This document shows positions 493-40,066 of a stretch of 64,000 nucleotides of DNA, in pieces. The position numbers were made by a program, and so were the translations under genes. The number at the start of each line of letters is the position of its first letter. Position 1 is the stretch's first letter. The notes under the pieces are model-generated. The model did not search any database. It worked only from the letters and a program-made list of their open reading frames with translations, and was not told the origin of the DNA. Source of the stretch: Candidatus Moraniibacteriota bacterium. Its GTDB lineage: Bacteria; Patescibacteriota; Minisyncoccia; Moranbacterales; UBA1568. The stretch is taken from the NCBI GenBank assembly GCA_023261645.1, contig JAHFOO010000003.1, positions 31,951-95,950 of the forward strand, in the 5' to 3' direction.

Positions 493-1602
493 CTATTCAA
501 TAGTAATAGCGACTATTTCAGACTGTGTGCCGATACGCATCGCGGGTCCCCACGTACCGACGCCACTCGTCGTGTACAAAGCGAAATCCCCAAAAGTATA
601 TAGTCCGTAATCGAAGCCTTTATGTATTATGTGTGTAATAAACTGAAAAGGAAACTGCTGACCCTGATGTGTGTGCCCGGCCAAAAAGAGATTTACTCCA
701 CTTTGCCTCACCTCATCGATATTCTTGGGGGCATGATAGAGGAGCACACTCGGTTTTCCGGAAAACTGATCCTTCAAAGATGCGAGAGTCGTGATGATAT
801 CTTTCTCCTCCCCTCGGTTCGGATAATTCACTCCGATTAATTTGAGACCATCGACATCCAAAACCTCATCTTGCATCAGGATCACCTTTGTCTTCCGTAA
901 AACAGCTAAAGATTTTTCGACTCCCAAGTAGGTTTCGTGATTGCCACTCACGAAAAATATTCCGTTTTCTGTTTCGATACTATCCAATGGTTGTACGAGA
1001 GAATCCAAGTGGCCATCCATTCCATCGAAGAGATCTCCGGTAATCACCACTATCTTCGGATGAAGCGTGTTTACCTTTTCGACAACGTCTTTGAGAAAAC
1101 CTGCCTGATATATGTGTCCCAAATGCACGTCAGAAAGCTGAACGATCGTTTTTCCTTTCCATACATCCGGAATACCGGGAATACGGACAGAAATATGTTT
1201 CACAACCGGATGAAAAGCATTCCAGACCCCGTACAAAGAGACAAATAAAGCCAATCCGAAGAAAAATAATCCCAATAATCCCTTGTCTACACCAAGATTT
1301 GCATACCTATTGATCCACAAAATAAGCCATACGGCGATAAGGGCCAGCATACTATTCACCAATAGTCCCAGCCAGAATCCGGAAAGGAAATAGAGTGCTC
1401 GTGTGAAAATATTCTCATATAGATGAGCGAGTACGGAGGAAAGAAAGAAACTCATCGAAAGAAAGATCAGGATACAAGCAAGAATATATTTCTGGGTAAT
1501 GTCCGTTATCGAGAAAAAATGTATGAAAGAAACATACACAATACTATGAGCTCCAAGCAAAATTGTAAGAAATGAAAGAAGAAAAAAAACGACTTGCATC
1601 AT
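493..1602 (-). CDS. Membrane-anchored calcineurin-like metallophosphoesterase
   Basis: The N-terminus has several hydrophobic helices. The C-terminal domain carries metallophosphoesterase motifs: VQLSDVHLG, ITGDLFDG, GNHE, GHTHQ. Confidence 0.8.
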   Translation of the reverse strand: MMQVVFFLLSFLTILLGAHSIVYVSFIHFFSITDITQKYILACILIFLSMSFFLSSVLAHLYENIFTRALYFLSGFWLGLLVNSMLALIAVWLILWINRYANLGVDKGLLGLFFFGLALFVSLYGVWNAFHPVVKHISVRIPGIPDVWKGKTIVQLSDVHLGHIYQAGFLKDVVEKVNTLHPKIVVITGDLFDGMDGHLDSLVQPLDSIETENGIFFVSGNHETYLGVEKSLAVLRKTKVILMQDEVLDVDGLKLIGVNYPNRGEEKDIITTLASLKDQFSGKPSVLLYHAPKNIDEVRQSGVNLFLAGHTHQGQQFPFQFITHIIHKGFDYGLYTFGDFALYTTSGVGTWGPAMRIGTQSEIVAITIE

Positions 1603-1632
1603 ATGCTTATGTATTACTTTTGGATATATCTT

Positions 1633-2259
1633 TTATGTTCGTGGATTTCCTTTCTTCCACTCGGCAATGCTCCCCATTTTTCTTTCAAGTGGGCTCGCTT
1701 TCCGTATAAGTCTTTTATTTTTTTTCGGCACGATCGGAAAGTGCCTCACATCATCGAGTGCGTGTGCAATATACCAGACATCTTCCGAGGAAGTGATCCA
1801 CTCCATACCGAAACGCTTGAGGGAAATCGGTACTGAATAACTCTGAAGCGTCTTCCGTCCTGTGGTGATCATAAAGTATTCGTGAAAGTAAGACAATGCC
1901 AATTCGCGAATCGTCCGATATATCGGATCACGAAACCTCAGCACTGAGTGATTCGTCTTGCTTATTGCGCCCCAGTAGCCATTCCGCTTATATAAAGCCA
2001 CTACATGGTCGTCATCATACCGAAGCGTCGTCAGATCAAGAAGGAGCGGTTCTTCGCCGTGAAGCCACAGTGCCGTAGCAGCCAGCATCGCCCCTTCGAT
2101 ACAGTGCGCCTTTTTCTCACGAAGTACCTGGCGTGGCGACAAACAAGTATCACCATTTTTCTCGTGATTGATGGGCAACCTATCGAGAAAATCCTGGATT
2201 TTTTCCGGTGTAGAAAGCTTCTTCAGAACGGTCAACTCTTTTTTTGATAATCCGAACAT
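1633..2259 (-). CDS. Transglutaminase-like superfamily putative cysteine peptidase
   Basis: A Cys motif (KKAHCIEGAMLAATALWLHG) is followed by DDDHVVALYKRNGYWGAISKTN, arranged like a transglutaminase-core Cys-His-Asp triad. The assignment is by pattern only. Confidence 0.35.
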   Translation of the reverse strand: MFGLSKKELTVLKKLSTPEKIQDFLDRLPINHEKNGDTCLSPRQVLREKKAHCIEGAMLAATALWLHGEEPLLLDLTTLRYDDDHVVALYKRNGYWGAISKTNHSVLRFRDPIYRTIRELALSYFHEYFMITTGRKTLQSYSVPISLKRFGMEWITSSEDVWYIAHALDDVRHFPIVPKKNKRLIRKASPLERKMGSIAEWKKGNPRT

Positions 2260-2358
2260 ACGTCTATTATAGCATCACCTCTTAAGCACATTCTCACCAC
2301 ATAAAAACGCCATCAAAGAAAGATGGCGTTCCAAATGTCATTATTAAAATCAAAAATA

Positions 2359-2901
2359 TTATTTAGACCAGTCAGCCGGTGCTTGCACCACATTCCCTCC
2401 TGCATCTACGACAACGCCTGTGTCATCCTTGATATTGGCTTCTGAACCATTTTGATCATCCTGCAGAAATCTATCGATGAAATACAGTTGTTCACCTGTC
2501 TTCAATATATATTGCTGATCATGATACTCTGCTTTCTGTGCCTTGAGTGATATTTCTGTCGTTCCGTCGGTCAAAGCTTTTTTGGTCATTACAAAACCGG
2601 ACAAAGCTGTCTTTGCATCAGCACTAAGCGGTGCATCTCCAGAAATGAGATACGCATTCTTTGCATATTCCTGTTCAGAGAATTTTGTTGCTGTTACGAC
2701 AGGCACTTTCGCTTTTTTTTCTTTACTTGTCTGTTCAGTGCCATTTTTCAGCAGTCCCAGATTGGAAAGCTTGTTCTTCTCATATTTCGCTCCGATATAA
2801 AAGATTCCTCCTGCGACTACAACCAGTATCAAACCGATAGTAAGCGTCTTCTTGTTATATCCCCAGATTTTTCCATCTTCTTCCATAATATTTATTCTCA
2901 C
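2359..2901 (-). CDS. Hypothetical membrane-anchored exported protein
   Basis: A 180-aa ORF with one N-terminal transmembrane helix (LTIGLILVVVAGGIFYIGA) and a hydrophilic remainder. No recognisable domain. Confidence 0.4.
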   Translation of the reverse strand: MRINIMEEDGKIWGYNKKTLTIGLILVVVAGGIFYIGAKYEKNKLSNLGLLKNGTEQTSKEKKAKVPVVTATKFSEQEYAKNAYLISGDAPLSADAKTALSGFVMTKKALTDGTTEISLKAQKAEYHDQQYILKTGEQLYFIDRFLQDDQNGSEANIKDDTGVVVDAGGNVVQAPADWSK

Positions 2902-2999
2902 TGATTAAGCACTCGCTATTGTATCATAGAAATATATCCTTTGCATATCTATATCCGATTGTATTTTCCGTAAAAAAAGTGTATCTTAAGAGGAGATAT

Positions 3000-3908
3000 A
3001 TGCTTCATTCAACAATAAAAGGAGCCGATTTCGGAGAAGAAGAGACTGCTTTCTATGCAGAGGCTTTCATGCGGAATATCGGACTACTGAAAGAGGAAGA
3101 ACAAGAAAAATTACACAACGCCCATATTGCGATAGCTGGTCTCGGTGGTGTCGGGGGCATTCACGCACTGAGTTTCGCACGCTTGGGAGTGGGAAGATTC
3201 AGTATTTCTGATAAGGATACTTTCGAAACTGCCAATATCAACCGTCAAGCCGGTGCCACGCAGGATACTTTCGGACAAGATAAAGCAGAGGTACTGGAAA
3301 AAATGATTCATGCTATCAACCCCTTTGCAGAAGTACGCCGATTCTCTCATGGTATTTCAGAAGAGACAGTGGACGCCTTCTTGGCCGATGCTTCTCTCGT
3401 CATCGATGGTTTGGATTTTTTTGAAATCGGTGTACGGCGGCTTCTCTTTCGCAAGGCCCAAGAAAAAAATCTCTCCGCCATCACCGCCGGTCCGGTCGGT
3501 TTCGGAGGAGCGATGCTTGTCTTCGATCCGCAAGGAATGAGTTTCGATGCTTATTTCGATCTCCACGATGGGATGAGCGAAGAAGAGATGGTGCTCCTCT
3601 TCGGTATCGGTCTCGCTCCGGCCCTCCTGCAGAGGAAATATTTCAAACCGGACACCATCGATCTCAAAAAAAGATCGGCGCCTTCCCTCGTCACAGGGAC
3701 GCTTTTTGCTTCCGGTCTTGTCACTTGTGAGGCGGTAAAAATTCTCCTTGGAGAAAAAGTCTACCCTGCACCGCACTTCTCCCAATTTGATCCGTACGTC
3801 CGTCGATATAAAAAAGGGTATCTCTGGGGAGGAAATCGCCATCCTCTTCAACGCTTCAAGAAATGGTATATCCTACGGAAATTGAAGCAACAACAAAAAA
3901 TTTCTTAA
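3000..3908 (+). CDS. ThiF/MoeB/HesA-family E1-like adenylyltransferase
   Basis: Rossmann nucleotide-binding motif IAIAGLGGVGGIHALSFARLGVGRFSISDKDTFETANINRQ. The track ORF starts at a TTG at 2919. The in-frame ATG at 3000 is preceded by AAGAGGAGA and is taken as the likely start. Confidence 0.8.
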   Translation: MLHSTIKGADFGEEETAFYAEAFMRNIGLLKEEEQEKLHNAHIAIAGLGGVGGIHALSFARLGVGRFSISDKDTFETANINRQAGATQDTFGQDKAEVLEKMIHAINPFAEVRRFSHGISEETVDAFLADASLVIDGLDFFEIGVRRLLFRKAQEKNLSAITAGPVGFGGAMLVFDPQGMSFDAYFDLHDGMSEEEMVLLFGIGLAPALLQRKYFKPDTIDLKKRSAPSLVTGTLFASGLVTCEAVKILLGEKVYPAPHFSQFDPYVRRYKKGYLWGGNRHPLQRFKKWYILRKLKQQQKIS

Positions 3909-5035
3909 AAACGCTTATGCCATCCCTTTCTCCAGAACTTCTGAAACAGATTCTTGAAGAAGCGCGTTTCGCTCCTTCCGGAGATAATATCCAGCCCTGG
4001 CTTTTCAAGATGTATCCTGATCATTCCCTCGTTCTCCATAGGAACGAGCCGGAAAATCTCCTTGCTTCCGATTATTTTCTGAATGCATCGTTTGTCGCAC
4101 TCGGTTGCATATTGGAGAATGTCGCCATCGCTTCGGAACATTATGGCTTTTCCAGTACTGTCGTTATCCACGAAGATTGTGTTTCTGATGAAACCCCTCA
4201 AGCTACCATCCATTTCATACCAACCACGCTTTCCGCTGAACAACAGGAATCGAATGAGAGACTTTTCCAGGTGATGTGCAAACGACATACTGATCGACGC
4301 CCCTACAAGAAGCAACCGCTCGATGATACGACGAAACGGCTTTTCGAAAAGACAGCCTTGGAGGGAGGCGGGAAACTCCACTTGATAGAAGGCGAAGAAA
4401 TGCTCGATGCTTTTGGAAAAACTCTCGGTAGTCACGATACGTATCTCTGGAATGATGCCACTCTGCGTGATAACCTGATCAGGTTCATTCATTTCTCCCA
4501 ATCAAATCATAGTGCCACAAGCGGAATGCCTCTCGATACGCTCGGTCTCGGAACGCTCAGCATTTTCTTCAAAACCGCCATTCTACTCGCGTACCGCATT
4601 CCTCTCCTGTGGAAAGTCATCTGTTTTGCTTCCCGATTCGGTACGCAAAAAACGCTTTCTGCTTCGAGCGCCTTGGTTTTTCTCACGCTCCCGAAACAGA
4701 AAATTCAGACGAGTCCGTTATCAGACACACCTACCAAAGACCTGGTACGCGGAGGAAGGATAGCGGAACGTCTCTGGTTACTGGCAGAAACGCTCGGATT
4801 GTCGCTCCAACCGCAATACGCCTTTGTCGCTATGGCTCATAATGCCGGGAATGAAAAATTGGGACAGTCTTTCCTTTCTGCCAACAAAAAAATCATCGCT
4901 TTTCTCAGATCTCACTGTCCGTGGTTCGAAAAAGAATCTCTCGTCTTCGCCTATCGCATCGGTTTCGTGGTGTCGAAGAAGAGAGCCTCTACGACAGAAC
5001 GCAAGAGCGTTGAAGAAATCCTGTGGCACACATAA
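3863..5035 (+). CDS. Tandem nitroreductase-fold (SagB/McbC-like FMN dehydrogenase) protein
   Basis: N-terminal domain shows RFAPSGDNIQPW (nitroreductase APSxxNxQPW signature). A second nitroreductase-like half ends ...GGRIAERLWLLAETLGLSLQP. It overlaps the 3' end of the ThiF-like gene by 46 nt. An alternative start is the ATG at 3917. Confidence 0.6.
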   Translation: MVYPTEIEATTKNFLKTLMPSLSPELLKQILEEARFAPSGDNIQPWLFKMYPDHSLVLHRNEPENLLASDYFLNASFVALGCILENVAIASEHYGFSSTVVIHEDCVSDETPQATIHFIPTTLSAEQQESNERLFQVMCKRHTDRRPYKKQPLDDTTKRLFEKTALEGGGKLHLIEGEEMLDAFGKTLGSHDTYLWNDATLRDNLIRFIHFSQSNHSATSGMPLDTLGLGTLSIFFKTAILLAYRIPLLWKVICFASRFGTQKTLSASSALVFLTLPKQKIQTSPLSDTPTKDLVRGGRIAERLWLLAETLGLSLQPQYAFVAMAHNAGNEKLGQSFLSANKKIIAFLRSHCPWFEKESLVFAYRIGFVVSKKRASTTERKSVEEILWHT

Positions 5036-5051
5036 ACTCAAATGTCTTTTC

Positions 5052-5819
5052 TTACTCGGATTTTTTCGGTGGAATGGCCCACGGACAGGTGTTATCGACA
5101 GCCAATTGAGCCCATATCTCACGATACCAGAGGCGATACCCTGCACTGCTCGGATGAAGCATATCGGGTGCGAAGTATTTCTTCGGTTCTTTTTCGAAAA
5201 AATAAAATTGACTGAAAAGATCCACGCAGGCGATGTCTCTCTCTTTGGCGACACGCGTGAAGATATTTTGAACACAAAGGGCGCGCGTACCGAGAAAACG
5301 TCGTAGCATCTTCGGAAAAAACGGGGCGAAACCAATATTGCTGTACACGAGCAGGATAGTCTTCCGACCGGAAAGAATATTCGCTAGATCGAGTACCCGT
5401 ACGATATCTTTTTCCAGACGGGCATACGCGCTCAAATGCCAGACATCGTTACCGCCGATACTGATGATGACAAGATCATACCGCTTCTCTTTTTTCTTCT
5501 CAAAAATGGCAATCAAGTCACGTGTCCGAAAGCCGTTTTCTGAAAGATTCTCAATCTCTACTCTCGGCAGATCGTGAGCAAGAAGACCACTTAGAGATTC
5601 TTCCGGTCTTGTTGCTCCGGTACCATAGCTCGTGCTGTCTCCGACGATGAGGATTCTTTTCTGTGCTCCTTTTGGATGCACGGAATATGAATGACTCATC
5701 AAAGAAAGACTCTTGTTGAGAGCTATACGCCACAGCATCCTCAGTGCCGTTACAACGATGAAACTATCCAAAAGGATGAAAAATATCGAAAAAAAATCGA
5801 GTCCGTTGAAAAAATCCAT
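5052..5819 (-). CDS. SGNH/GDSL-family hydrolase, membrane anchored
   Basis: N-terminal transmembrane helix, then the GDS block ILIVGDSTSYGTGA, the IGGNDV block and DMLHPSSAGY (the DxxH catalytic block). Confidence 0.75.
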   Translation of the reverse strand: MDFFNGLDFFSIFFILLDSFIVVTALRMLWRIALNKSLSLMSHSYSVHPKGAQKRILIVGDSTSYGTGATRPEESLSGLLAHDLPRVEIENLSENGFRTRDLIAIFEKKKEKRYDLVIISIGGNDVWHLSAYARLEKDIVRVLDLANILSGRKTILLVYSNIGFAPFFPKMLRRFLGTRALCVQNIFTRVAKERDIACVDLFSQFYFFEKEPKKYFAPDMLHPSSAGYRLWYREIWAQLAVDNTCPWAIPPKKSE

Positions 5820-5824
5820 ATTTT

Positions 5825-6628
5825 TTATTGATGCTTCAGCAATTCATCATAGCGCTCTGTAGAGAGTACTTCACGAAGTTTAGTATACCACAAGCCATAA
5901 CCCTCTCCGTTCGGATGAATCCCATCGGAAGCGAAAAGAAGATGTGGGGATTGCCTGAATGGGTCCGCTGCTTTCTCTTCAAAAAGATCGACGTAACTGA
6001 CTTCTGCAGATTCTGTCGCTTCCAGGAATAGTGCACGAATCTTTCTTGTCCTTTCTTCGAAATAACAGCTCAAAGGAAAACGAAAAAAAGGAATCGTGCC
6101 AAGATTGGCAGATGAAGATACCACAACCCTCCCAGCGCTTATTTTTTTTGCACTGGCGAAAATATAATCGAGTCTCCTCGAAAAATGCGTCAATGGTCTG
6201 AGTGTAAGCGTGTCTATCCCACCGATCTGGATGATGACAAGATCAGCCTTCATATCCGGATGATCTCTCAGAAAAACGGCTAGTTCTCTCGTCCCCATAC
6301 CTACCTTGGCATAGTTCCTGATGGAAATGAGAGGAAATTCCGCTCCCAATCGCCCAGCCAAAGAGAATTCCGGACGTTCCGATCCCGTGCCGGCTACCGT
6401 GCTGTCACCAAGAATAATGACTGTTTTTCCACTGCGCTCTCTCCTATACGGATGAGTCGTATAGCCTAAATACTTGGCAATACTGCCAAAAAGAATCAAA
6501 GAAAAAATCTCAAAAAGAGCATAACAAAAGATGATAAGTCCCAACCATTGAAGAAAAAGGAGAATGAGCATAAACAAGTGTTCCCCACATTGTAAAGAAT
6601 ATCGCTCCAAAAAGCAACTTACTCCCAA
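5825..6628 (-). CDS. SGNH/GDSL-family hydrolase, membrane anchored (tandem paralogue)
   Basis: VIILGDSTVAGTGS, IQIGGIDT and DGIHPNGEGY. Same architecture as the adjacent gene. Confidence 0.75.
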   Translation of the reverse strand: MGVSCFLERYSLQCGEHLFMLILLFLQWLGLIIFCYALFEIFSLILFGSIAKYLGYTTHPYRRERSGKTVIILGDSTVAGTGSERPEFSLAGRLGAEFPLISIRNYAKVGMGTRELAVFLRDHPDMKADLVIIQIGGIDTLTLRPLTHFSRRLDYIFASAKKISAGRVVVSSSANLGTIPFFRFPLSCYFEERTRKIRALFLEATESAEVSYVDLFEEKAADPFRQSPHLLFASDGIHPNGEGYGLWYTKLREVLSTERYDELLKHQ

Positions 6629-6702
6629 GGAACGCCCGACTTTCCCTGCAATAAAGAACTCTATTCTTGAGGAAATATGATATACTGGACAGAAATGCCT
6701 CT

Positions 6703-7320
6703 ATGGAAAATAGCTTTCTGCTGTTCCTCGGTCCGTGGTTACAATCGCACATCATTTTGTGGGGTCCTATCGCTATCTGGGTCACGGTCTTTCTCTTCGG
6801 TGAAAATGGAGCCTTGATCGCTTTTGCCTTCTCAGCACAAGGATTTATTTCACCAGCGGATGCTCTCATTTTTTCCTTCCTTGGATCCTTTTCTGCAGAT
6901 CTTTTCTGGTATTTCATCATAGTCAGCACCTTCCGTTCCTGGTATGAACGACATTTCAAGAAAACTCTCCGGGCATCAGACACCAAACGATCTTTCCTAA
7001 GTCTTGCAGACAATCACCCTTATGCCCTCTTGATTCTCCTGAAGTTCTTGGTCGGAGTGAGACTTATCTTGACTTTTTATATTCTTACCAAGAAAAAACT
7101 CCCCTTTCAGGCGTATTTTTTCTGTATCCTTCTCGGAAATATTCTCTTTGTAGCGGTACTATTCCCCATCGGATGGCTTCTTGGCACGGGTGCCAAAGAG
7201 GCTCTGCTCATAGGACAAGGCTTATCGAGCATCCTGACCACTCTCGTCATTGTCGGTATCACCAGTCAAGCTCTCCTGTATCTCATCCGTCGCGCCCTGC
7301 TTCGTTTTTCCAAAAAATAA
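6703..7320 (+). CDS. DedA/VTT-domain-like integral membrane protein
   Basis: Polytopic membrane protein. KFLVGVRLILTF resembles the DedA R-[FL]-[IV]-P-x-x-R region. The track ORF starts at a TTG at 6667. The ATG at 6703 (MENSF...) is the likelier start. Confidence 0.45.
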   Translation: MENSFLLFLGPWLQSHIILWGPIAIWVTVFLFGENGALIAFAFSAQGFISPADALIFSFLGSFSADLFWYFIIVSTFRSWYERHFKKTLRASDTKRSFLSLADNHPYALLILLKFLVGVRLILTFYILTKKKLPFQAYFFCILLGNILFVAVLFPIGWLLGTGAKEALLIGQGLSSILTTLVIVGITSQALLYLIRRALLRFSKK

Positions 7321-7496
7321 ATCCGGTGCAACCCGATTCGATTCAAATCAAGGCGAGTAAAATCGGATGTTCTAATTCATTATCCGGACATTCCTCCACG
7401 ATCGACTTCCATTTTTGTGCTATACTGAAAACAAAAGAATCACTATTATAAGGGCTTATTTCTCGAAGAAAATAAGAAAAAAATCACTCTAAAAAA

Positions 7497-8684
7497 ATGC
7501 CTTCTTTCTCTCTTCTTTGGATGTACGTAGCACGTGATATCGGTCGGAGCAAGGCGCTCTTCGCACTCATCATTTTCAGTCTGGCCGTTGCTTCAACGGC
7601 GCTCCTTCTTACCGTAGGAATCTTGGACGGTTTCCGAGTAATGCTGACCGATGGTGAACGTGGTTGGCTCGGCGACATCGTCATCACACCGCAAGACGAC
7701 GACCGTTCCATCGAACAAGTACGTTTCATAGAGGAACAACTCCAATCATTGCCGGAAGTAGAAGCTTTCAGCCTAAGAAGTCGAAGTCAGTCTGTACTCC
7801 GTTATGAAAACAGAAAAACGACTCCTTTTCAAATCTTGGGTATCGACCCAGCTTCGGATAGCAGAGTAACATGGCTCCAATCGAAAATAATCGAGGGAAC
7901 CTATTTCGAAAATTCCACCGCCGATGAAGTGATTCTGGGGAAAAACCTGAGTGACAGTCTCATCGGATCTTTGGATGACAACAAAAGTATTCATCCTGGT
8001 GAAGATATCTATGTTCTTTCGTCTTCCGGTGAATACAAACCCTACAGAGTGCGTGGCATCGTCGATGCAAAGACATTCTTCCCGAACTGGAGCCTCTTCT
8101 TCACGAAAGATCGTCTGGAGAAGATCGACGCGAGCAGCCGTAATTCACAACTGATCGTGAAAATCTCTGATGAAAAACAGGTGCTCGGTGTACGCGATTC
8201 ATTACGTGCACAATTTCCCGGGGCGACTGTAAAAACATGGGAAGAAGAGTCAAGCTACACTCGGGATATTCTCCAAACAGTGACATTTATCACACGCTCC
8301 ATCCATGATCTGCTCGTCCTGACGGTATTTATGGTCATCAGCATCGTCATCTTCATCAATGTCAACCAAAAGAAAAAACAGATCGGTATACTGAAGGCGA
8401 TGGGTACGAACAATTCTTTCATCGTCACCGCCTATATAACGCAGGCATCGATTTACGCAATCTTTGGTTTCATCATCGGCCTTGGTCTGTTCTTCATCTT
8501 CTTTTGGTGGTCCATCAATCATCCTATCCCCCTCCTTATCGGTGATTTCCGTTTACAAGTTTCTCTTATGACAGGTCTGAGTTCTTTCATCACTCTTGCT
8601 GTAGCGTCTATCGGCGGAGCCCTTATTCCATCCTTCTTGGCAGCCCGGATGCGTATTATCGATGTTATCCGCAACAATAATTGA
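7497..8684 (+). CDS. ABC transporter permease, FtsX/MacB-type
   Basis: N-terminal transmembrane helix, a periplasmic domain, and a C-terminal FtsX domain (ILKAMGTNNSFIVTAYITQASIYAIFGFIIGLGLF). Confidence 0.8.
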   Translation: MPSFSLLWMYVARDIGRSKALFALIIFSLAVASTALLLTVGILDGFRVMLTDGERGWLGDIVITPQDDDRSIEQVRFIEEQLQSLPEVEAFSLRSRSQSVLRYENRKTTPFQILGIDPASDSRVTWLQSKIIEGTYFENSTADEVILGKNLSDSLIGSLDDNKSIHPGEDIYVLSSSGEYKPYRVRGIVDAKTFFPNWSLFFTKDRLEKIDASSRNSQLIVKISDEKQVLGVRDSLRAQFPGATVKTWEEESSYTRDILQTVTFITRSIHDLLVLTVFMVISIVIFINVNQKKKQIGILKAMGTNNSFIVTAYITQASIYAIFGFIIGLGLFFIFFWWSINHPIPLLIGDFRLQVSLMTGLSSFITLAVASIGGALIPSFLAARMRIIDVIRNNN

Positions 8685-8690
8685 ACATCT

Positions 8691-9500
8691 ATGTTTCCCG
8701 CACATCTGCACCAACAAAGCTCGCAAATGACTCCCTACGCTTCAGGAAGAGATCATTCTTCTTCATCTCTGCCAGCACTTGTCAGTATCCGAAACATTGT
8801 GAGACGCTATGAACCTCCAGAAGGAGTTCCTATCACAGCCTTAAACGGTGTCAGTCTGGAAATTTACAAAGGTGAGTTCCTCGCAGTGACAGGTCATTCC
8901 GGTTCAGGCAAAAGTACTTTTTTGAACCTCATCGGACTCATTGATGAACCGAGCAGTGGCGATATCATCATAAACGGTCGCAATACCTCCCTTTTCAACG
9001 AAAAAGAACGTACCGAATTTCGATTGAATGCCTTGAGTTTCGTCTTCCAATCCTTCAATCTCATAGAAAATTTCACGGCACTCGAAAATATCGCCTTTCA
9101 ACTCCGTTTGCAAGGATATAGTAAAAGAGACGCTCACAAACAAGCTCAGGAAACACTGAACTATCTCGGCCTTCAAGACCGGGCCCGTCTCTACCCACGA
9201 GAATTGTCCGGAGGAGAACAACAGCGTATCGCCATCGGACGAGCGCTCGTCAAAGATTCCTTCCTTCTGTTGGCCGATGAACCAACGGCTCATCTCGATT
9301 CCAAGAATTCTCAAAATGTTATGGAACTTCTCTCCCAAGTCAATCGTGAATTCGGACGGACCATCGTTCTGGTCACTCACGAAACGGAAGAAACAGCATT
9401 CGCCAACCACACAGTCACGTTCCGCGATGGCCGGATAACCAGTGATGAGAGAGCAGAAACGGAAAATTCTGCTATAATACGGAAAACATCCTATGTTTAA
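8691..9500 (+). CDS. ABC transporter ATP-binding protein (MacB/LolD-type)
   Basis: Walker A GHSGSGKST, ABC signature LSGGEQQRIAIGRAL, Walker B LLADEPTAHLD. Its stop overlaps the next gene's start (ATGTTTAA). Confidence 0.9.
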   Translation: MFPAHLHQQSSQMTPYASGRDHSSSSLPALVSIRNIVRRYEPPEGVPITALNGVSLEIYKGEFLAVTGHSGSGKSTFLNLIGLIDEPSSGDIIINGRNTSLFNEKERTEFRLNALSFVFQSFNLIENFTALENIAFQLRLQGYSKRDAHKQAQETLNYLGLQDRARLYPRELSGGEQQRIAIGRALVKDSFLLLADEPTAHLDSKNSQNVMELLSQVNREFGRTIVLVTHETEETAFANHTVTFRDGRITSDERAETENSAIIRKTSYV

Positions 9501-11049
9501 ATTCATTCTTTCTTTCCTTATTATCGGAATATGCATCGCTTCGGGAATACTTTTTTGGTATCGGCCGGATTTTCTTCTCTGGCTGTCACCGGGAAACACC
9601 TCTGAACTCTCTGTACCCGTGGAATACAAATCAGGAGCGCTCGCACTCGAAGTGAACAATGCACAGATTGTCTCCAAAGATGAGTACAACCTTACCTTTC
9701 CGCTCTCTGGTACCGTGGATGAAGTATTTGCACAGGAAGGGACCGTAACGGATGTAGGTACCAAACTCGTGAAATTAGAAACACGCGAATTGGAATTGGA
9801 ACTCAAAAAGAACGAGGCTCTCTTGGCAGAAGCGGAAGCAAATCTCGCCAAACTCCGAAAGGGAACGCGTCTCGAAGAAATAGCCGTGTACGTCGATAAG
9901 AAGAACAGCTCCGAAACTACCCTGAAAAATCAGAAACAAGCAGCCATCGATACTGCCTACGATGCTTTCATTCAATCAGACGACGCTATACACAACAAAA
10001 CAGACCCTCTCTTCACGAATCCGAATACCGCTCCCCAACTCACGTTCACGCCGAGCGACAGTGGTCTTGAAAACGATATTGAATCCGAACGCTTGTCGCT
10101 CGAAAGCAAGCTCAACGACTGGAAGAATAGTGCCAAAGATATGAAAACATCCGGTGATATACAGAAGTATATCAATACTGCGAGAAATAACCTTGGAGAT
10201 GTTACCTCGTATTTGGACAAGATAGCTCTCGCTGTAAATGCTCTTGTGGCTGGCAGTATTACCCAAAACACGATTGACTCATGGAAAGTTTCCACTATCG
10301 CGGCACGTACCGCTGTCAGTACGGCGACATCGAATGTAGGCACTGCGGAAGCTTCTTTCAATGGTGCTCGTAAAGATCTCTCTGTAGCCGAAAGTGAGCT
10401 CGATTTGAAAGTAGCAGGAACACAATCCGATGACGTCATAGCAGCAGTGAATGCCGCCGAAGTTGCAAAAAATCAAATGGAGGTAGTCAAAGAACATATG
10501 CGACAATCGATCCTCACGGCTCCTGAGACGGGACTGACCATCGAGAAAATCTATCCGAAAAAAGGTGAGTACGTACAAAGCGGTATGCCTGTCGCCATCG
10601 TTTCACAATCGACCCTCGAAATACAGGTTGATGTCCCAGAAGAAGACATCAGCTCTGTTTCCATCGGGAATACGGCAACCCTCACGCTTTCCGCTCTTCC
10701 TCGTGAGAAAATTTCAGGTACCGTTTCCTCCATCGAACGGAAAGAAATAGAAAAGGAAGGGAGTATTTATTTTCGTTTCCATATTTCTCTTCAGTCAGAA
10801 TGGGAAAAGAACGAACGCTTACGTCCAGGAATGACAGGAAATATTCTCATCTTCGGAACGAATATCGGCAAGGCGCTCCGCATACCACAGTCCGCTCTCT
10901 ATACTCGGGACGGAGTGATCTATGTGAAAGTCATCCGTCCATCCAAAAAAATTGAGGAGGTGGGAGTGAAAGTAGGTGCCGAAGGAGAAGGCTACGCGCA
11001 GATTATGGCCGGTCTCGGTGCAGGAGACAAAGTAATACTCAAACCCTGA
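9493..11049 (+). CDS. HlyD/MacA-family periplasmic adaptor with a long coiled coil
   Basis: N-terminal transmembrane helix, an extended coiled-coil region, and a C-terminal beta-barrel/lipoyl-like segment (LRPGMTGNILIFGTNIGKALRIPQSALYTRDGVIYVKV). Translationally coupled to the ABC ATPase. Confidence 0.7.
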   Translation: MFKFILSFLIIGICIASGILFWYRPDFLLWLSPGNTSELSVPVEYKSGALALEVNNAQIVSKDEYNLTFPLSGTVDEVFAQEGTVTDVGTKLVKLETRELELELKKNEALLAEAEANLAKLRKGTRLEEIAVYVDKKNSSETTLKNQKQAAIDTAYDAFIQSDDAIHNKTDPLFTNPNTAPQLTFTPSDSGLENDIESERLSLESKLNDWKNSAKDMKTSGDIQKYINTARNNLGDVTSYLDKIALAVNALVAGSITQNTIDSWKVSTIAARTAVSTATSNVGTAEASFNGARKDLSVAESELDLKVAGTQSDDVIAAVNAAEVAKNQMEVVKEHMRQSILTAPETGLTIEKIYPKKGEYVQSGMPVAIVSQSTLEIQVDVPEEDISSVSIGNTATLTLSALPREKISGTVSSIERKEIEKEGSIYFRFHISLQSEWEKNERLRPGMTGNILIFGTNIGKALRIPQSALYTRDGVIYVKVIRPSKKIEEVGVKVGAEGEGYAQIMAGLGAGDKVILKP

Positions 11050-11053
11050 AGTT

Positions 11054-11671
11054 ATGTCTCTTGTTTGTAAAAAAGCAACTACCATCGGAGAAAAAAATCG
11101 GGCTCGCTCCATCGTAGAACACGAATATCTCAAGATGGGTTATCTCATACACAAAGAGGCAACACCTCCACAGATACCCAGTACTCCCTATCTCAGGGAA
11201 GCAACATCCGAAACATATGCTCTCTATTTAGACAAGAAAATCATCGGCACCATTTCGATAATTATGGACTCGGTACACGGACTGCCGATGGACGCGCTTT
11301 TCAAAAGCGAACTTGATACCTTTCGGAAGAAAGACGAGCACCTCGCAGAAGTGGTACAGCTCGCCATCGATGAAGAGATACTCGCTCAATCAGGAATGCT
11401 CAAGAAAAACATTGAGCGTCTCCGTTTCCTTACTTCATTGTTTCAAGCAGTACTCCGATCTGCTCATCGGGCACATATCAGCACATTATGCATTATGGTA
11501 AACCCAAAGCACGATACTTTTTATGAACACATCGGTTTCCGGACCATTGGAGAGGAGAAATCCTATCCCCCTCTCCAGAATGCACCGGCTGTACCGAAAG
11601 TGCTCACACTCAAAAACAAGCTAAATAGTATCGTAAAAAGCCACATCCTAAGCCAAATATTATATATTTAG
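11054..11671 (+). CDS. N-acyl amino acid synthase-like GNAT-fold N-acyltransferase (OlsB/FeeM family)
   Basis: A 205-aa protein. Its size and pattern (RSIVEHEYLKMGYL...) fit the acyl-ACP-dependent N-acyltransferase (Acetyltransf_5, autoinducer-synthase-like) family. It sits directly upstream of the PlsC-like, PPTase and ACP genes. Confidence 0.45.
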   Translation: MSLVCKKATTIGEKNRARSIVEHEYLKMGYLIHKEATPPQIPSTPYLREATSETYALYLDKKIIGTISIIMDSVHGLPMDALFKSELDTFRKKDEHLAEVVQLAIDEEILAQSGMLKKNIERLRFLTSLFQAVLRSAHRAHISTLCIMVNPKHDTFYEHIGFRTIGEEKSYPPLQNAPAVPKVLTLKNKLNSIVKSHILSQILYI

Positions 11672-11737
11672 AAAGACATTCTGAGTAAGGACAAAGGTGC
11701 TATAATAGAAGTACGCTTTGATGATCATAGAGCTCTT

Positions 11738-12421
11738 ATGGCTGATGACGATAAACAGACAATGTCTCTTTTCAGAAAGATGAAGGATGGTACCATCGTC
11801 TTTTTCCAATTACTTTCGTATTTTTTCTTTCTTTTTTTCTTCCGCCCGTTTCTTCATATTAAACGCACATTACCGGATAATATCTCACGATTGAATCGCG
11901 GATCGCTCCTGGTAGCGAACCATCAGGCAAAAACCGACCCATTCATCGTTATGGGATATCTGCCGTTGCTTTCGTTTCTGAAACTTATTCCTGTACGTTT
12001 CCCAGCAGACAATCATTATATGAAAATTCCTCTCGTCGGTTCCGTTCTCCGGCTTTTCGGATGTTATGATGTCGGAGGGAACACACGTGAACGAATGCTT
12101 GTGCTTCTCCGTACATGTGAGCTCATCCGGTCCGGAAAAACAGTCTTTCTTTTCCCTGAAGGAGAGATTGCTCAATCGGAGAGAGTTCCATTTCAGAAGG
12201 GCATCAACTTTTTCATACGCGAAGCGAAAGCAGTCATTTTCGTAAGAATAGATGGCTTCAACCCTCAGAATATTGCGTCACTGGAAGAAAAGGAACGTCG
12301 ACTCTCCTATGGAGAAGTATGCGATACCGAGCTCACCAGCCTCGATGTCGTCAAACTGCAGGATTATTTCGACCTCCTGACAGAAAGCCGTTCCCCATTC
12401 ATTATCCGCAATGATAAATAG
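11738..12421 (+). CDS. Lysophospholipid/1-acylglycerol-3-phosphate O-acyltransferase family (PlsC/OlsA-like)
   Basis: HX4D motif NHQAKTDPF and FPEGE motif (LFPEGEIAQSERV). Confidence 0.75.
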   Translation: MADDDKQTMSLFRKMKDGTIVFFQLLSYFFFLFFFRPFLHIKRTLPDNISRLNRGSLLVANHQAKTDPFIVMGYLPLLSFLKLIPVRFPADNHYMKIPLVGSVLRLFGCYDVGGNTRERMLVLLRTCELIRSGKTVFLFPEGEIAQSERVPFQKGINFFIREAKAVIFVRIDGFNPQNIASLEEKERRLSYGEVCDTELTSLDVVKLQDYFDLLTESRSPFIIRNDK

Positions 12422-12431
12422 ATAGTGCCTT

Positions 12432-13103
12432 ATGCAGATTTCCTTCTGCGAATATTCCTCAGTAGCCACCGTATCACCGGAACAGTTCCTCAATAAGGAA
12501 GAATACCTTCGGTGGTCGAAGCTTCCTCAAAAGAAAAAAATGAGTTCCCTCATCGGCAAGGTGACTGCGAAACGAGCGACGCAAGCTCTCTGGGAAAAAC
12601 ATTGCGGAGCAATACTTCCATATCATACTATCAATATACGACATACCTCTGCCGGTATGCCACGCATACATACATATCCGATTCTCCTCAGCATCAGCCA
12701 TACCGATGACTGTGGCATCGCTCTGGTCGCTTTGGATAAGCCTCATCTTAGGATAGGAATAGATATCGAACGCATCCGCACCTTCAATCAGAAATTCATC
12801 GATGGCTTCCTCACAAAAAATGAACAATCCTGGTGCGAAGAGAAGTCTGCCGATGAAAAAAAGAGACGACAGACGCTCTCTTGGTCTTACAAAGAAGCCT
12901 TCCTCAAAGCTCTCGGCACAGGATTACGAGAACATCCGAAAACTGTTGAGATTTCTCCCATAACTTCTGCAAAGGTTTTCCTCTCTTGCAACGGCTATCG
13001 AGGAGAAGGCAGGGAGATAACACTCCCAGGAAAATGGGGGAACTATGTCGCTACTGTAGTAGAAATATATCCATTCACAAAAAAAGAATCCCTGTATCAA
13101 TAA
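12432..13103 (+). CDS. 4'-phosphopantetheinyl transferase
   Basis: GIDIERI and WSYKEAFLKALGTG motifs. Confidence 0.75.
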   Translation: MQISFCEYSSVATVSPEQFLNKEEYLRWSKLPQKKKMSSLIGKVTAKRATQALWEKHCGAILPYHTINIRHTSAGMPRIHTYPILLSISHTDDCGIALVALDKPHLRIGIDIERIRTFNQKFIDGFLTKNEQSWCEEKSADEKKRRQTLSWSYKEAFLKALGTGLREHPKTVEISPITSAKVFLSCNGYRGEGREITLPGKWGNYVATVVEIYPFTKKESLYQ

Positions 13104-13116
13104 TATCTCTGCGACT

Positions 13117-13362
13117 ATGCCACACACTGACACTCTCACAACCAAGGTATATGAAATCATACACCAAGCGACACGAGTCCCCCTCGAAAAGATTTCACTA
13201 AATGCCGAACTTGAAGACCTTGTTGATGATTCCATACAACTGTTCCAGCTCATCCTTTCTTTCGAAGAGGCTTTCGGAATGCGCGCGAAGTATCAAGATC
13301 TTATGAAAATCATCACGGTCGGCGATATTGTCGATTATCTGAAAAAAATACAGTCTCTTTGA
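13117..13362 (+). CDS. Acyl carrier protein
   Basis: An 81-aa protein with the DLVDDSIQLFQLI motif (DS serine attachment site) in an ACP-like helical context. Confidence 0.8.
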   Translation: MPHTDTLTTKVYEIIHQATRVPLEKISLNAELEDLVDDSIQLFQLILSFEEAFGMRAKYQDLMKIITVGDIVDYLKKIQSL

Positions 13363-13406: not shown

Positions 13407-14750
13407 TCACTCATACCTCAAGGCTTCCAAAGCATGAATTTTTGAGGCGCGCATAGCAGGAAATATCCCCGTCACCAATCCGAGGAAAAAGATGAAGACA
13501 ATGATAGAAATAATGAATATGGAAGGGACTTCCACAAATGACAATGGGGTAACATTATATTTCTCCCCCAAAAAATTGATAACATAATTTACACCTCTGG
13601 CCACTCCATAACCACCGAGCAACCCGATGCTTCCGCCAAAAAAACTGATCAGAAACGCTTCAAAAATAAACATTTTAAATATATCAGCTCGCTTGGTTCC
13701 GAGCGCTTTGAGGATACCAACCTCCTTGGTACGTTGCAAAAGAGAGATACTCAAAGTATTCAACATTCCCATTGCAGAAATAGACATTATGATGGTACCG
13801 AAAATCACCAGAATAATCCGAACTATCAGAAAAAATGAATTGATTTCGGTAATAGTATCGATAATACTCTCTGTAGTGAAGGCTGTCTGCTCTATCTGAA
13901 GACGTACCGACTCAATGACACTGTCATCCTTGACACGTACTTTTGCAAACTGTCCTGCGACATTGCCATATCGTTTCTGAAACTCTTCAAAAGAAAGAAA
14001 TGCGTACACAGCATCATCCTTGGTTTGGTCTTTCACAATACCCACTATCGTAAGCGTATCATCAGTATCTCTCTTGGACGTTTCTTCCGGTGTTGATTCT
14101 GTATCATTAGCAAACATATCAGCTGTCACAGTACTCGTGTATGTTATCTGTTTTCCGATGCTCTCTTCCGGTTTCTCAAAACCGAGGAGATTGGCAAGTT
14201 TTGGTGTGATAAGGACGCCATTCGATTCAGTAAAAATCTTGCTCCCTATTTCTTGATTGATGTCAGAACGAGCCAAATCAAGATAGTGTCGACTGATCAC
14301 ATTGATAACAACATCCGTCTGTGTATCACCATTTGAAAATTTTCCTCCGACACTTGTTCGTGTTTCCACTTGCTCAACTCCTCCGATATTTCTCATTCTC
14401 TCAAGTGCGACATTGTCCATCAAAATAAAATTATCGAGACTCTTATTGCTCACATCGATGATATTGCTCGGATTATTCTTGGTCACCTCTCGAATGACCA
14501 TATCCTGGATTCCGAATCCAAGCGAGATGAGTAAAGTAATGATGCCGATGCCGATGCCAACACCTCCAATCGTCAGGATAGAACGGAGTTTGTTTGAAAT
14601 CATATTCCGATATCCGATCAATAATACCGATGAAAATTTCATATGAGCAAAAGGTTCTCTCTTTGTCGAGCGCGTGCGAACGAAAAGATTCCTCTTCCTA
14701 TCCGGAGGAGATGCTGGTTGTTGGTTGCTGTTTCGTAATGAAGAATGCAT
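13407..14750 (-). CDS. ABC transporter permease, MacB/FtsX-type with large periplasmic domain
   Basis: N-terminal transmembrane helix, a roughly 220-aa periplasmic domain, and a C-terminal FtsX four-helix region (ILKALGTKRADIFKMFIFEAFLISFFGGSIGLLGG). Confidence 0.8.
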   Translation of the reverse strand: MHSSLRNSNQQPASPPDRKRNLFVRTRSTKREPFAHMKFSSVLLIGYRNMISNKLRSILTIGGVGIGIGIITLLISLGFGIQDMVIREVTKNNPSNIIDVSNKSLDNFILMDNVALERMRNIGGVEQVETRTSVGGKFSNGDTQTDVVINVISRHYLDLARSDINQEIGSKIFTESNGVLITPKLANLLGFEKPEESIGKQITYTSTVTADMFANDTESTPEETSKRDTDDTLTIVGIVKDQTKDDAVYAFLSFEEFQKRYGNVAGQFAKVRVKDDSVIESVRLQIEQTAFTTESIIDTITEINSFFLIVRIILVIFGTIIMSISAMGMLNTLSISLLQRTKEVGILKALGTKRADIFKMFIFEAFLISFFGGSIGLLGGYGVARGVNYVINFLGEKYNVTPLSFVEVPSIFIISIIVFIFFLGLVTGIFPAMRASKIHALEALRYE

Positions 14751-14756
14751 ATTTTT

Positions 14757-15497
14757 TTAACTTTTTTTCATATCTTCCTCGATCATATCAAACGAATTCT
14801 GATTAATGACATCAGAAACGATTTTCCCATCCACCATACTGACAATTCTCGAACTGAACTTATACTGATCCGTGTTGTGCGTCACCATCAGAATGGTGAT
14901 GCCAAACTGCTTTGAAATATTTCTCACAAGTGTCATCAGTACCTCTCCTGCTTTCATATCGAGGTTGCCAGTCGGCTCATCAGCAATGATGAACTTCGGA
15001 TTAAGCAGGAGCGAACGAGCAAGAGCGATCCGTTGTTGCTGACCTCCGGAAAGATCGAATGGACGATGATTTGCCCACTCTCCCATCCCCACAAGTTCAA
15101 TCAGTTTGGCAGCAATAGTGACGCTTTCGTGAAATGTCTTGCCAGCGATAACTCCTGGAATGGCGATATTTTCGATTACTGTCAATGATTTGATCCAAAA
15201 TGGCTGTTGCGGAATAAAACCAATATTTTTATTCCTGAAATTTGCTCTCCAGTCCTTGCTCTGGGTCCAAATATCGTCGAGCTCGATAGTAACCGTTCCT
15301 TCTGTGGGGCTTTCGAGACCATAAATGGTATGAAGAAGCGTCGATTTTCCACAACCGGAAGGACCAACTAACAATATGAACTCACCTTTACGAACTTCAA
15401 GGTTGATACCGTGTAACACCTGAATGTCTTGAGTTCCTACGCGAAAAGACTTCTTCAGATTCATCACTTTGATAACAATTTCTTTTTCTTCGACCAT
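14757..15497 (-). CDS. ABC transporter ATP-binding protein (MacB/LolD-type)
   Basis: Walker A GPSGCGKST, signature LSGGQQQRIALARSL, Walker B IIADEPTGNLD. Confidence 0.9.
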   Translation of the reverse strand: MVEEKEIVIKVMNLKKSFRVGTQDIQVLHGINLEVRKGEFILLVGPSGCGKSTLLHTIYGLESPTEGTVTIELDDIWTQSKDWRANFRNKNIGFIPQQPFWIKSLTVIENIAIPGVIAGKTFHESVTIAAKLIELVGMGEWANHRPFDLSGGQQQRIALARSLLLNPKFIIADEPTGNLDMKAGEVLMTLVRNISKQFGITILMVTHNTDQYKFSSRIVSMVDGKIVSDVINQNSFDMIEEDMKKS

Positions 15498-23213: not shown

Positions 23214-23481
23214 GAGATTTCTATACTCGTTTTTCCTCGAGAAAGGTCTTTTTCAAAAAGCGAATTCCACACACAAAACAAAGAGTTTCCAAGAACCTTC
23301 TGGTTATAGTATACCACACAATGAAAAGAAAAAAAGTAAGAAATCCCCTTACAAATGCAAAAAAGAGCCATTCTCCAATAATGATACCTCACAACTATTT
23401 CCTCTCTCTTTCCTCTTGACAGATAATTGGTTTACTGATAAACTAGGAAACTGTTTTGTTGATAATTTTAAGAAATTTTTT

Positions 23482-23949
23482 ATGTATACAAATGACTCTC
23501 TCTCCCCTATTCTTCCTATCATTCATATTGCCCATCGATTCGAGGCGATCGCCCAAAGATATATCTTCCAACCGACAGGCTTCTCCCCTATGAGTATGAA
23601 TATCTTGCGATTGTTGCGTGACAATGGACCTCTGATTGCGAGTGATCTGATACGAATGACGGCCACAACCAAGTCGAATATGAGCCAACGACTGAGTTTC
23701 CTCGAAAAAGAACACCTCGTTTCAAGGATGCCTGCAAAAGAAAATGGCGACAAACGAAAAACAATGATTTCTCTCACAACATCAGGAAAGAAGAAAATCG
23801 CCACTCTTGAAGAAAGAATCAAAAAGGCTGAGATATCATTCGAAAAAAAATTCACCCCAAAAGAATTAGCCGACCATAAAGCCTTCTTTGAAAAACTCAG
23901 CATAATCCTCGACAATGGTGAATGTGAATTAACCAAAATATTTAAATAA
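23482..23949 (+). CDS. MarR-family transcriptional regulator
   Basis: Winged-helix region MNILRLLRDNGPLIASDLIRMTATTKSNMSQRLSFLEKEHLVSRMPAKENGDKRKTMISLT. The track ORF from 22912 extends over the divergent promoter region. The in-frame ATG at 23482 gives a typical 155-aa MarR. Confidence 0.7.
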   Translation: MYTNDSLSPILPIIHIAHRFEAIAQRYIFQPTGFSPMSMNILRLLRDNGPLIASDLIRMTATTKSNMSQRLSFLEKEHLVSRMPAKENGDKRKTMISLTTSGKKKIATLEERIKKAEISFEKKFTPKELADHKAFFEKLSIILDNGECELTKIFK

Positions 23950-23954
23950 CCGGC

Positions 23955-25067: not shown

Positions 25068-25094
25068 TCTCCCTCTAAAAATATCTCTCATCGT

Positions 25095-28496: not shown

Positions 28497-28630
28497 GAAA
28501 GCTTCATTCATAAGGATAGGGAGCAATTGGTATGATCCATCCGTTATCGCGAGCATCCTCTTCGAGAGAAAAATTGAAGCAACCGATTACAATCGAAACA
28601 GTAATTCGTATCTCGACAAAAAAATCAAAA

Positions 28631-28657
28631 AGAGCCCCGGGTGAGGCTCTTTTTTTG
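28631..28657. terminator. Rho-independent terminator (bidirectional hairpin)
   Basis: AGAGCC...GGCTCT stem followed by a T7 run. Preceded by an A-run, so it can also terminate the convergent minus-strand gene. Confidence 0.5.
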
Positions 28658-28672
28658 AGAAAGATAATCTCT

Positions 28673-29467: not shown

Positions 29468-29496
29468 TATTTTTTTAAAAAAGCGTTAGAGACTTG

Positions 29497-30756: not shown

Positions 30757-30780
30757 ATTTGTTTTTCTTCTGTAAATAAA

Positions 30781-30817
30781 AAGAAAAAAGACGGGTTCTG
30801 TCACCACCCGTCTTTAT
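30781..30817 (-). terminator. Rho-independent terminator downstream of the ABC exporter pair
   Basis: GACGGGT...ACCCGTC hairpin. On the minus strand it is followed by a T-rich run (rc of AAGAAAAAAG). Confidence 0.45.
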
Positions 30818-30918
30818 TACTTATCCATTCTAGCATATTTTTTCACTCTTGTCCAATAGAACTGATGGAGAAAGAAATGAATGGAGGAGTCTGGTGGATT
30901 TAGATTCTCAAAATAATA

Positions 30919-34934: not shown

Positions 34935-35081
34935 ACTATTTTTTTAAATTGTGTAAGTATATTAACTAATTTTGATACATCTGTCAATGAAATTATACTT
35001 TACAGACTCAAATATCAGCCACAAACAACAAAAAACAAGGCTTGCCACGACCTTGAATTCGACGGAGAGAGAATAGGAGGA

Positions 35082-35357: not shown

Positions 35358-35556
35358 TATTTCTAATATACACTATTCTAATATCCTATCAAAGTCTCAA
35401 AGCTTTACTCCTTCAGATTGAAGAAGTTTATGGAGCAAAGTGTGTGAGATTTACCCCGCTCTGCTTTTCGCTATGTCTGTACCCAGTTATGAAATTGGTA
35501 CGGTATATTCTTCTCATCGTTATCCATACCGTATTCTAAATCTTTACTTCTTTTCG

Positions 35557-38294: not shown

Positions 38295-38311
38295 AGAACC
38301 TGTTCCTTTTG

Positions 38312-38962: not shown

Positions 38963-38987
38963 ATGATTGATCTTGAAAAAATAATAA

Positions 38988-40043: not shown

Positions 40044-40066
40044 AGAATATATTCTCTTAAAATAAA

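Follow-up and report, generated by a model that had tools for sequence, protein, structure and literature searches.

In a 64,000-nucleotide stretch of a Candidatus Moraniibacteriota bacterium genome (assembly GCA_023261645.1, contig JAHFOO010000003.1, positions 31,951 to 95,950; hereafter the window, with positions counted from its first letter), we identified a gene for a ThiF/E1-like adenylating enzyme (E1) followed by a gene for a tandem nitroreductase-fold protein of the FDO subgroup, and judging from homology and gene context the two probably form a split oxazolone synthetase of the OxzB/TyzBC type. The basis in this analysis is provided by sequence and fold families, conserved catalytic motifs, gene fusions, and co-occurrence across phyla. 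The features by which such a synthetase would be recognized, a ThiF-like domain with an intact ATP site, the corresponding E1 family, a neighboring Acg-like FDO, and a FeeM-type synthase gene in the locus, all appear to be present. The three genes concerned are as follows:

3000..3908, + strand: predicted ThiF/E1-like adenylating cyclase (TyzB / OxzB N-domain type), 302 aa; Pfam ThiF E 5.5e-42
3917..5035, + strand: FDO, tandem nitroreductase fold, 372 aa; the longest open reading frame (ORF), 3863–5035, has 390 aa
11054..11671, + strand: predicted FeeM-type N-acyl amino acid synthase (role of OxzA/TyzA/TrzA); Pfam FeeM 114 bits

The E1 ORF is intact, as a first reading of the DNA from its letters alone (hereafter the sequence-only reading) had stated, and an AGGAG stands 6 nt 5' of its ATG; a longer, TTG-initiated ORF from 2919 was set aside as not needed. 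The protein scored 363.7 bits against the NCBIfam family NF006077/PRK08223 (cut-off 266), aligning with profile positions 6–290 of 296, and it also aligned with three fusion profiles in their N-terminal parts, PRK14851 (679 positions), PRK14852 (989), and the Rv1355c family (722). The ATP-site residues are kept when aligned to ThiF (GxGGxGG 45–53, D71, N79/R82/Q83, K95, and D136/D139), and D139, which is D or E family-wide, aligns with ThiF D127, the conserved residue behind the TrzS substitution D217A. The best homologs come from Moranbacteria or Patescibacteria, and the RpoD of the organism has 88% identity to that of Ca. Moraniibacteriota, as suits a Moranbacteria-like patescibacterium. The identity was 42–48% to OxzB-type fusions and 31%, over 141 aa only, to a protein passing the Rv1355c/TrzS model, values that fit the published division into TyzB/OxzB and TrzS subclusters.

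By sequence as well as fold, the nearest solved structures to E1 are those of ThiF and MoeB, and the public annotation of its homologs reads "molybdopterin/thiamine biosynthesis adenylyltransferase." This would suit an adenylyltransferase for a sulfur carrier of ThiS/MoaD type, working in thiamin, molybdopterin, or thiocarboxylate synthesis beside an unrelated NAD(P)H nitroreductase, and the sequence-only reading had included a cofactor or thiocarboxylate pathway among its proposals. We consider such a role very unlikely. The scores for the ThiF and MoeB equivalogs were far under the cut-offs (TIGR02356, 87.8 bits against 275; PRK05690, 82.2 bits against 266), the E1 family has no conserved Cys or CxxC (the sole Cys of the window protein, C243, is not conserved), and E1 lacks Zn-binding CxxC pairs and a rhodanese domain. 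In the whole 64 kb, we found no GG-ending ORF of 50–120 aa and no ThiS/MoaD-like ORF. The strong co-conservation and fusion of E1 with FDO argue in the same direction, and TyzB, likewise misannotated (as "MoeW"), is a cyclase (PMC10404671). The chance that E1 serves ubiquitin-like conjugation or anti-phage defense (Cap2, Bil, or 6A-MBL type) is practically negligible: E1 does obtain scores for the TcdA, Uba, and Cap2 models, but these are far under the cut-offs and reflect only the common Rossmann core, there is no catalytic Cys, and no E2, JAB, or ubiquitin-like protein genes are found nearby.

For the second protein, the sequence-only reading had described 390 aa and a 46-nt overlap with E1. 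An ORF of that length exists (3863–5035, + strand, in a frame different from that of E1), but translation most likely starts at the second ATG, at 3917, so that the protein has 372 aa and 8 nt separate its gene from the E1 stop codon TAA at 3906–3908. In two other independent assemblies of the same organism the gene is called from ATG 3917, all FDO homologs start at or beyond the position matching it, and the 18-residue N-terminal extension produced by a start at ATG 3863 has a counterpart in none of them. Neither candidate ATG is preceded by a clear Shine–Dalgarno sequence. As the overlap requires the start at 3863, it is doubtful; in relatives, the spacing between E1 and FDO is 6–65 nt and a comparable overlap was never seen. 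A fusion gene split by a frameshift or by an assembly error was ruled out because the E1/FDO junction is the same in three independent assemblies and most relatives have the genes split (41 split and 15 fused in 80 genomes). A scan of 2300–5400 for promoters and terminators gave nothing above chance.

By its sequence, FDO is one of the monomeric pseudo-dimers that make up the FDO subgroup within the nitroreductase superfamily. The fusion profiles that match E1 in their N-terminal parts match FDO in their C-terminal parts, the best NCBIfam match of FDO being to the Rv1355c family (E 5.6e-37, C-terminal part), in agreement with the two nitroreductase-like halves recognized from the sequence alone; the APSxxNxQPW signature reported at the same time is found as APSGDNIQPW at residues 37–46 of the 390-aa ORF. 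Against the Acg family NF047509 (FDO-B) the score was 116 bits with a cut-off of 199, indicating a common fold with family membership not established. When the window protein, its patescibacterial relatives, an OxzB-like fusion, and a TrzS-family protein were compared, the FDO domains had in common PSxDNxxPW, G63, E67, R123/R127, W287-L288, P299, and R347xG349. Of these regions, R123/R127 and Q298-P299 are candidate equivalents of TrzS R540/Q651; counted on the 390-aa ORF, R123/R127 are R141/R145. The choice of search method had a large effect on the FDO relatives recovered: a word-indexed search gave only 9, whereas an exhaustive profile search gave 9362 matches, 993 of them at ≤1e-30. FDO domains were also seen in other fusions, including P0136 (1062 aa), a ThiF domain with two FDO domains; P0145 (1593 aa), with glycosyltransferase–FDO repeats; and P0142 (750 aa), a double FDO.

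The association of the two enzymes with each other and with FeeM extends well beyond the window. We scanned the GTDB species genomes with the E1 alignment and obtained 80 loci, from Omnitrophota, Saccharibacteria, Planctomycetota, Proteobacteria, Nitrospirota, and Acidobacteriota, and scored their neighbors by searching six-frame ORFs with hidden Markov models from window-centered alignments. FDO was present in the flanks of E1 in 56 of the 80 loci, lay within 500 bp of it in 51, was directly downstream on the same strand in 41, and was fused with it into one ORF in 15. A FeeM-like gene was found in the flanks (within 10 kb) in 58/80 loci and at most 1 kb away in 39/80, and 41/80 had both FDO and FeeM near E1; among the 53 loci having at least 5 kb on each side, just 2 had neither. 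The matched segments of PRK14852 are consecutive (FeeM at 32–204, E1 at 308–581, and FDO at 614–739 of 989 positions), and a single profile therefore spans FeeM, E1, and FDO in that order. The functional pairing of the two window proteins, proposed in the sequence-only reading, is borne out by their co-occurrence across genomes.

The sequence-only reading had nevertheless pointed to a different product, seeing in the pair possible maturases of a ribosomally synthesized and posttranslationally modified peptide with azol(in)e rings (TOMM/LAP type, like microcin B17), with the YcaO and precursor genes elsewhere. The general chemistry of that proposal, an ATP-dependent E1-like enzyme and a flavin dehydrogenase yielding an oxidized five-membered heterocycle, has held up, and its alternative of a small-molecule pathway was the correct one. 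The peptide maturase itself is extremely unlikely, as every testable defining feature fails: the pair falls outside TIGR03693 (ocin_ThiF_like), TIGR03605 (SagB), and the McbC/ThcOx-type dehydrogenase fold, and E1 has no N-terminal peptide-clamp domain. A Pfam scan of 53 window ORFs found no YcaO, nor was one found in the flanks of the relatives, and the surroundings of the pair hold no precursor ORF rich in Cys/Ser/Thr, the only two small ORFs with at least 30% Cys/Ser/Thr in 1000–7500 both being inside other genes. The lack of an adjacent YcaO or precursor had been correctly noted, and the system had been called possibly incomplete; we disagree with the latter because the substrate-supplying FeeM gene is in the same cluster, 6 kb downstream. 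The closest known system, oxazolone synthetase (OxzAB, TyzACB, TrzAS), had been missed.

Three such pathways have been characterized: OxzAB of P. rubra (bioRxiv 10.1101/2020.06.11.147165), TyzACB of M. tuberculosis (PMC10404671), and TrzAS, that is, Rv1356c/Rv1355c (PMC12856293). In all three, an aromatic amino acid is first N-acylated by a FeeM-fold acyltransferase; the N-acyl amino acid then undergoes ATP-dependent cyclization by a ThiF-like enzyme and desaturation by FDO and O2 to give an N-acyl oxazolone. OxzB and TrzS are fusions of the ThiF and FDO parts, which in Tyz are encoded by separate adjacent genes (318 and 372 aa), and cyclization before desaturation is obligate in the fused TrzS but not in the split TyzBC (PMC12856293). 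The window pair resembles TyzB (Rv2338c, "MoeW") and TyzC (Rv2337c) in placing a ThiF-like cyclase of ~300 aa beside an FDO of ~370 aa in one operon, the FDO being, like TyzC, a monomeric Acg-like nitroreductase with a lid. In both loci, a lipid transporter (MmpL9 in Tyz, MacB in the window) and an N-acyltransferase of FeeM fold are nearby, and TyzB and the window E1 have both been misannotated as molybdopterin/thiamin enzymes. The window differs from Tyz in phylum, Patescibacteria instead of Actinobacteria; in its acyltransferase, which is divergent and adjacent in Tyz but short, of FeeM type, and 6 kb away here; and in the added acyl carrier protein (ACP), 4'-phosphopantetheinyl transferase (PPTase), PlsC, and GDSL enzymes, which suggest a supply of acyl-ACP rather than acyl-CoA.

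The comparison with OxzB-type fusions gives a similar picture. We found the published oxzAB layout in Pseudoalteromonas ardens (locus L070), where an acyltransferase gene matching TIGR03694 and Pfam FeeM lies 82 bp upstream of a 670-aa ThiF–FDO fusion, an uncharacterized orthologue and not P. rubra OxzB itself. Its ThiF domain passes NF006077 (385.4 bits) and shares 42% identity with the window E1 over 280 aa; its FDO domain has 25% identity to the window FDO. The window thus shares with this type the E1 family NF006077, an FDO that aligns with the C-terminal domain of the fusion, and an acyltransferase matching Pfam FeeM. It differs in having two genes in place of the one ~670-aa protein of OxzB, and from OxzAB also in that oxzA is immediately upstream in a two-gene operon and uses acyl-CoA. 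The N-acyl tryptazolone pathway of TrzS (Rv1355c, "MoeY") and TrzA has the same two catalytic modules, but TrzS is fused and its ThiF domain belongs to a different subcluster. The genes of the Acg/Rv3131 FDO-B nitroreductases (PDB 2YMV) are, unlike the window FDO, not paired with ThiF. Ring closure to an oxazolone by ATP-dependent activation of a carboxylate, as proposed here, is also carried out by another ThiF-like enzyme, the tRNA ct6A synthase TcdA, but its substrate is a tRNA and the similarity is confined to the Rossmann core (60.6 bits, cut-off 304).

The pair and FeeM are part of a larger assemblage. The region 3000–13362 was taken as one conserved cluster of 12 genes, because patescibacterial relatives carry the same families in shuffled order. 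We treated E1, FDO, FeeM, ACP, PPTase, and the MacB-type exporter with its ATP-binding cassette (ABC) ATPase and membrane-fusion protein (MFP) as the core, and the two GDSL enzymes, DedA, and PlsC as accessory. The members not listed above are:

5052..5819, − strand: GDSL/SGNH lipase-acylhydrolase 1 (accessory); Pfam Lipase_GDSL_2 9.2e-21
5825..6628, − strand: GDSL/SGNH lipase-acylhydrolase 2 (accessory); Pfam Lipase_GDSL_2 3.1e-20
6667..7320, + strand: DedA/VTT-domain membrane protein (accessory); Pfam VTT_dom, weak, under the gathering score
7497..8684, + strand: predicted MacB-type ABC permease; Pfam MacB_PCD and FtsX
8691..9500, + strand: ABC ATPase of the MacB-type exporter; Pfam ABC_tran 8.5e-31; kept beside the permease
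9493..11049, + strand: membrane-fusion (HlyD/RND-MFP) adaptor; TIGR01730 130.8 bits, HlyD_3
11738..12421, + strand: PlsC-family acyltransferase (accessory); Pfam Acyltransferase 3.9e-15
12432..13103, + strand: Sfp-type PPTase; Pfam ACPS 2.4e-17
13117..13362, + strand: ACP; Pfam PP-binding 4.6e-09 and ACP NCBIfam models

The gene orders in four patescibacterial relatives were as follows, that of the Moranbacteria locus L091 holding every family found between 3000 and 13362 (DHO, DHOdh: dihydroorotate dehydrogenase):

L091: DedA, FDO, E1, GDSL x2, FeeM, MFP, ABC, MacB, PlsC, PPTase, ACP
L092: DedA, FeeM, unknown, E1, FDO, ABC, MacB, ACP, PPTase
L002: E1, FDO, FeeM, DHO-dehydrogenase-like, MFP, ABC, MacB x2, methyltransferase, hydrolase, ACP, PPTase
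L094: FDO .. E1 .. PPTase, ACP, MacB, FtsX, ABC, MFP, DHOdh-like, FeeM

The MacB-type permease, by its domains a probable exporter of the lipid product, and ACP are kept in all the Candidate Phyla Radiation clusters L002, L090, L091, L092, and L094, PPTase in L002, L091, L092, and L094, and the MFP adaptor in L002, L091, and L094. Among the accessory genes, DedA homologs occur in L091 and L092, the GDSL pair adjoins E1 in L091 too, and PlsC, which also matches the acyl-ACP-dependent Aas acyltransferase domain, is kept in L091. In the 80 genome loci, a MacB-type permease lies near E1 in 19, and ACP with PPTase in 1. The genes at 1633–2259 and 2359–2901, upstream of E1, were excluded from the cluster because they were found only in the same strain and are not co-conserved with it. 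In the patescibacterial locus L090, an alternative-oxidase gene (AOX, PF01786) is directly upstream of E1, replacing FDO. A gene for a dihydroorotate-dehydrogenase-like flavoenzyme (PF01180) adjoins FeeM in L002 (12638–13726) and L094 (15719–16876), with none in the window; the enzyme may perform an extra redox step.

In the route that we propose, the FeeM-type synthase (11054–11671) would N-acylate an L-amino acid, probably an aromatic one as in every characterized system, the acyl thioester probably being held on the cluster ACP (13117–13362) activated by the cluster PPTase (12432–13103). E1 would then adenylate the carboxylate, the amide oxygen would attack, and with the departure of AMP the 5(4H)-oxazolone ring would close; an enzyme thioester is unlikely at this step because the E1 family has no conserved Cys. 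FDO (3917–5035), dependent on flavin mononucleotide, would use O2 to desaturate Cα/Cβ to a conjugated 4-ylidene oxazolone, and the MacB–ABC–MFP transporter (7497–11049) would deliver the lipid to the envelope or export it from the cell.

Several observations weigh against this interpretation. The window FeeM gene is not adjacent to the pair but lies 6 kb downstream, past two opposite-strand genes; no ACP-loading gene was seen, and the characterized acyltransferases take acyl-CoA, not acyl-ACP. FDO is divergent, with ~25% identity to OxzB-like FDO domains and scores under the Rv1355c and Acg cut-offs. The link to the characterized proteins, P. rubra OxzB, M. tuberculosis TyzB/TyzC, and M. smegmatis TrzS, runs through NCBIfam profiles and the uncharacterized Pseudoalteromonas orthologue. 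Finally, a subset of the loci with a PRK08223-type E1 and a FeeM-like gene is without FDO (L030, L032, L040, L047, L050, L057, L069, L023, and L004), with PEP-CTERM proteins, S-adenosylmethionine (SAM) methyltransferases, or a fatty-acid desaturase as neighbors. As part of the E1 family is thus FDO-less and beside PEP-CTERM proteins, the family is not bound to one chemistry; these loci, together with L090, suggest other oxidases or other chemistry in part of it, and they may account for the naming of TIGR03694 as "PEP-CTERM/exosortase-associated acyltransferase."

The serious rival keeps the enzymes and the substrate and changes the end product: the carboxylate activated by E1 would be passed to another nucleophile, or the oxazolone would be transient and opened to an N-acyl dehydro-amino acid or to a larger aminolipid finished by PlsC and GDSL enzymes. 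We regard it as unlikely, with evidence on both sides. In L091, conservation of the pair extends to PlsC, DedA, and both GDSL enzymes, but PlsC and GDSL are absent from L002, L092, and L094, DedA is absent from L002 and L094, and in other phyla all three are nearly absent (1/80). Oxazolones hydrolyze readily to N-acyl dehydro-amino acids (PMC12856293), but the oxazolone is the released product in all three characterized systems. The methyltransferases, fatty-acid desaturase, and PEP-CTERM proteins beside some FDO-less E1–FeeM loci would also fit a different product. So would the planctomycetes: the planctomycete Stieleria secretes antimicrobial N-acyl tyrosine derivatives (noted in PMC12856293), and E1, FDO, and several FeeM genes occur together in planctomycete loci. 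Five Planctomycetota loci (L015, L024, L025, L028, and L075) have two or three FeeM paralogues beside E1 and FDO and, given the products of Stieleria, are candidate producers of such compounds.

Outside the cluster, the window holds further features of note. Behind the cluster, a second MacB/ABC pair (13407–15497, − strand) precedes a giant ORF of 2565 aa (15516–23213, − strand) with Kelch/galactose-oxidase-type repeats and an Ig-like domain, probably a surface protein. The region 22912–40489 is unusually rich in efflux genes, with a MarR-family regulator accompanying each set: an HlyD and AcrB RND pair (23955–28496), two ABC_membrane/ABC_tran half-transporters (30919–34504), and a major facilitator superfamily (MFS) protein with two HlyD proteins (36810–40043). 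On the − strand at 43600–44256 lies a tRNA gene whose anticodon loop is split by an intron of ~550 nt, which contains a group I ribozyme core (Rfam RF00028, 72 bits, 43682–43926) and a 107-aa ORF (43872–44195) with HNH-like motifs (CxxC...EFHH...CANCH) and no Pfam match. ARAGORN found no tRNA in the raw window, and in-silico removal of ~43668–44217 gave a 73-nt tRNA-Thr(UGU); other cut points gave His(GUG), and the splice sites are thus approximate. Beside this gene are a GNAT–ASCH fusion (41730–43070, + strand) and then a stand-alone ASCH gene (43118–43459, − strand).

Oxazolone lipids were discovered only in 2021–2025, in Proteobacteria and mycobacteria. The occurrence of the synthetase in Patescibacteria and its extended cluster with ACP, PPTase, and exporter look new; a literature search for an oxazolone or N-acyl amino acid synthase in Patescibacteria found no report, though one may exist. 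Members of this group presumably cannot synthesize fatty acids de novo, which leads to the tentative idea that, with this lineage-specific cluster, acyl chains scavenged from a host are possibly passed over a private ACP and built into an N-acyl oxazolone or related aminolipid for export, either an envelope component or a host-directed signal or effector. If true, the pathway, known to date only as two or three genes that depend on acyl-CoA in Proteobacteria and Actinobacteria, would here have a variant that relies on ACP and is coupled to export. Conservation of the ThiF/FDO/FeeM module extends to Omnitrophota, Planctomycetota, Saccharibacteria, and Moranbacteria-like Patescibacteria. Recognizing it corrects the widespread misannotation of E1 as "molybdopterin/thiamine biosynthesis adenylyltransferase" and gives a concrete, testable function to the models PRK08223, PRK14851, and PRK14852, still named "hypothetical protein." The presence of a dedicated ACP, PPTase, and exporter cluster in ultrasmall, reduced genomes suggests a basic role, in the envelope or between cells, that is worth keeping.

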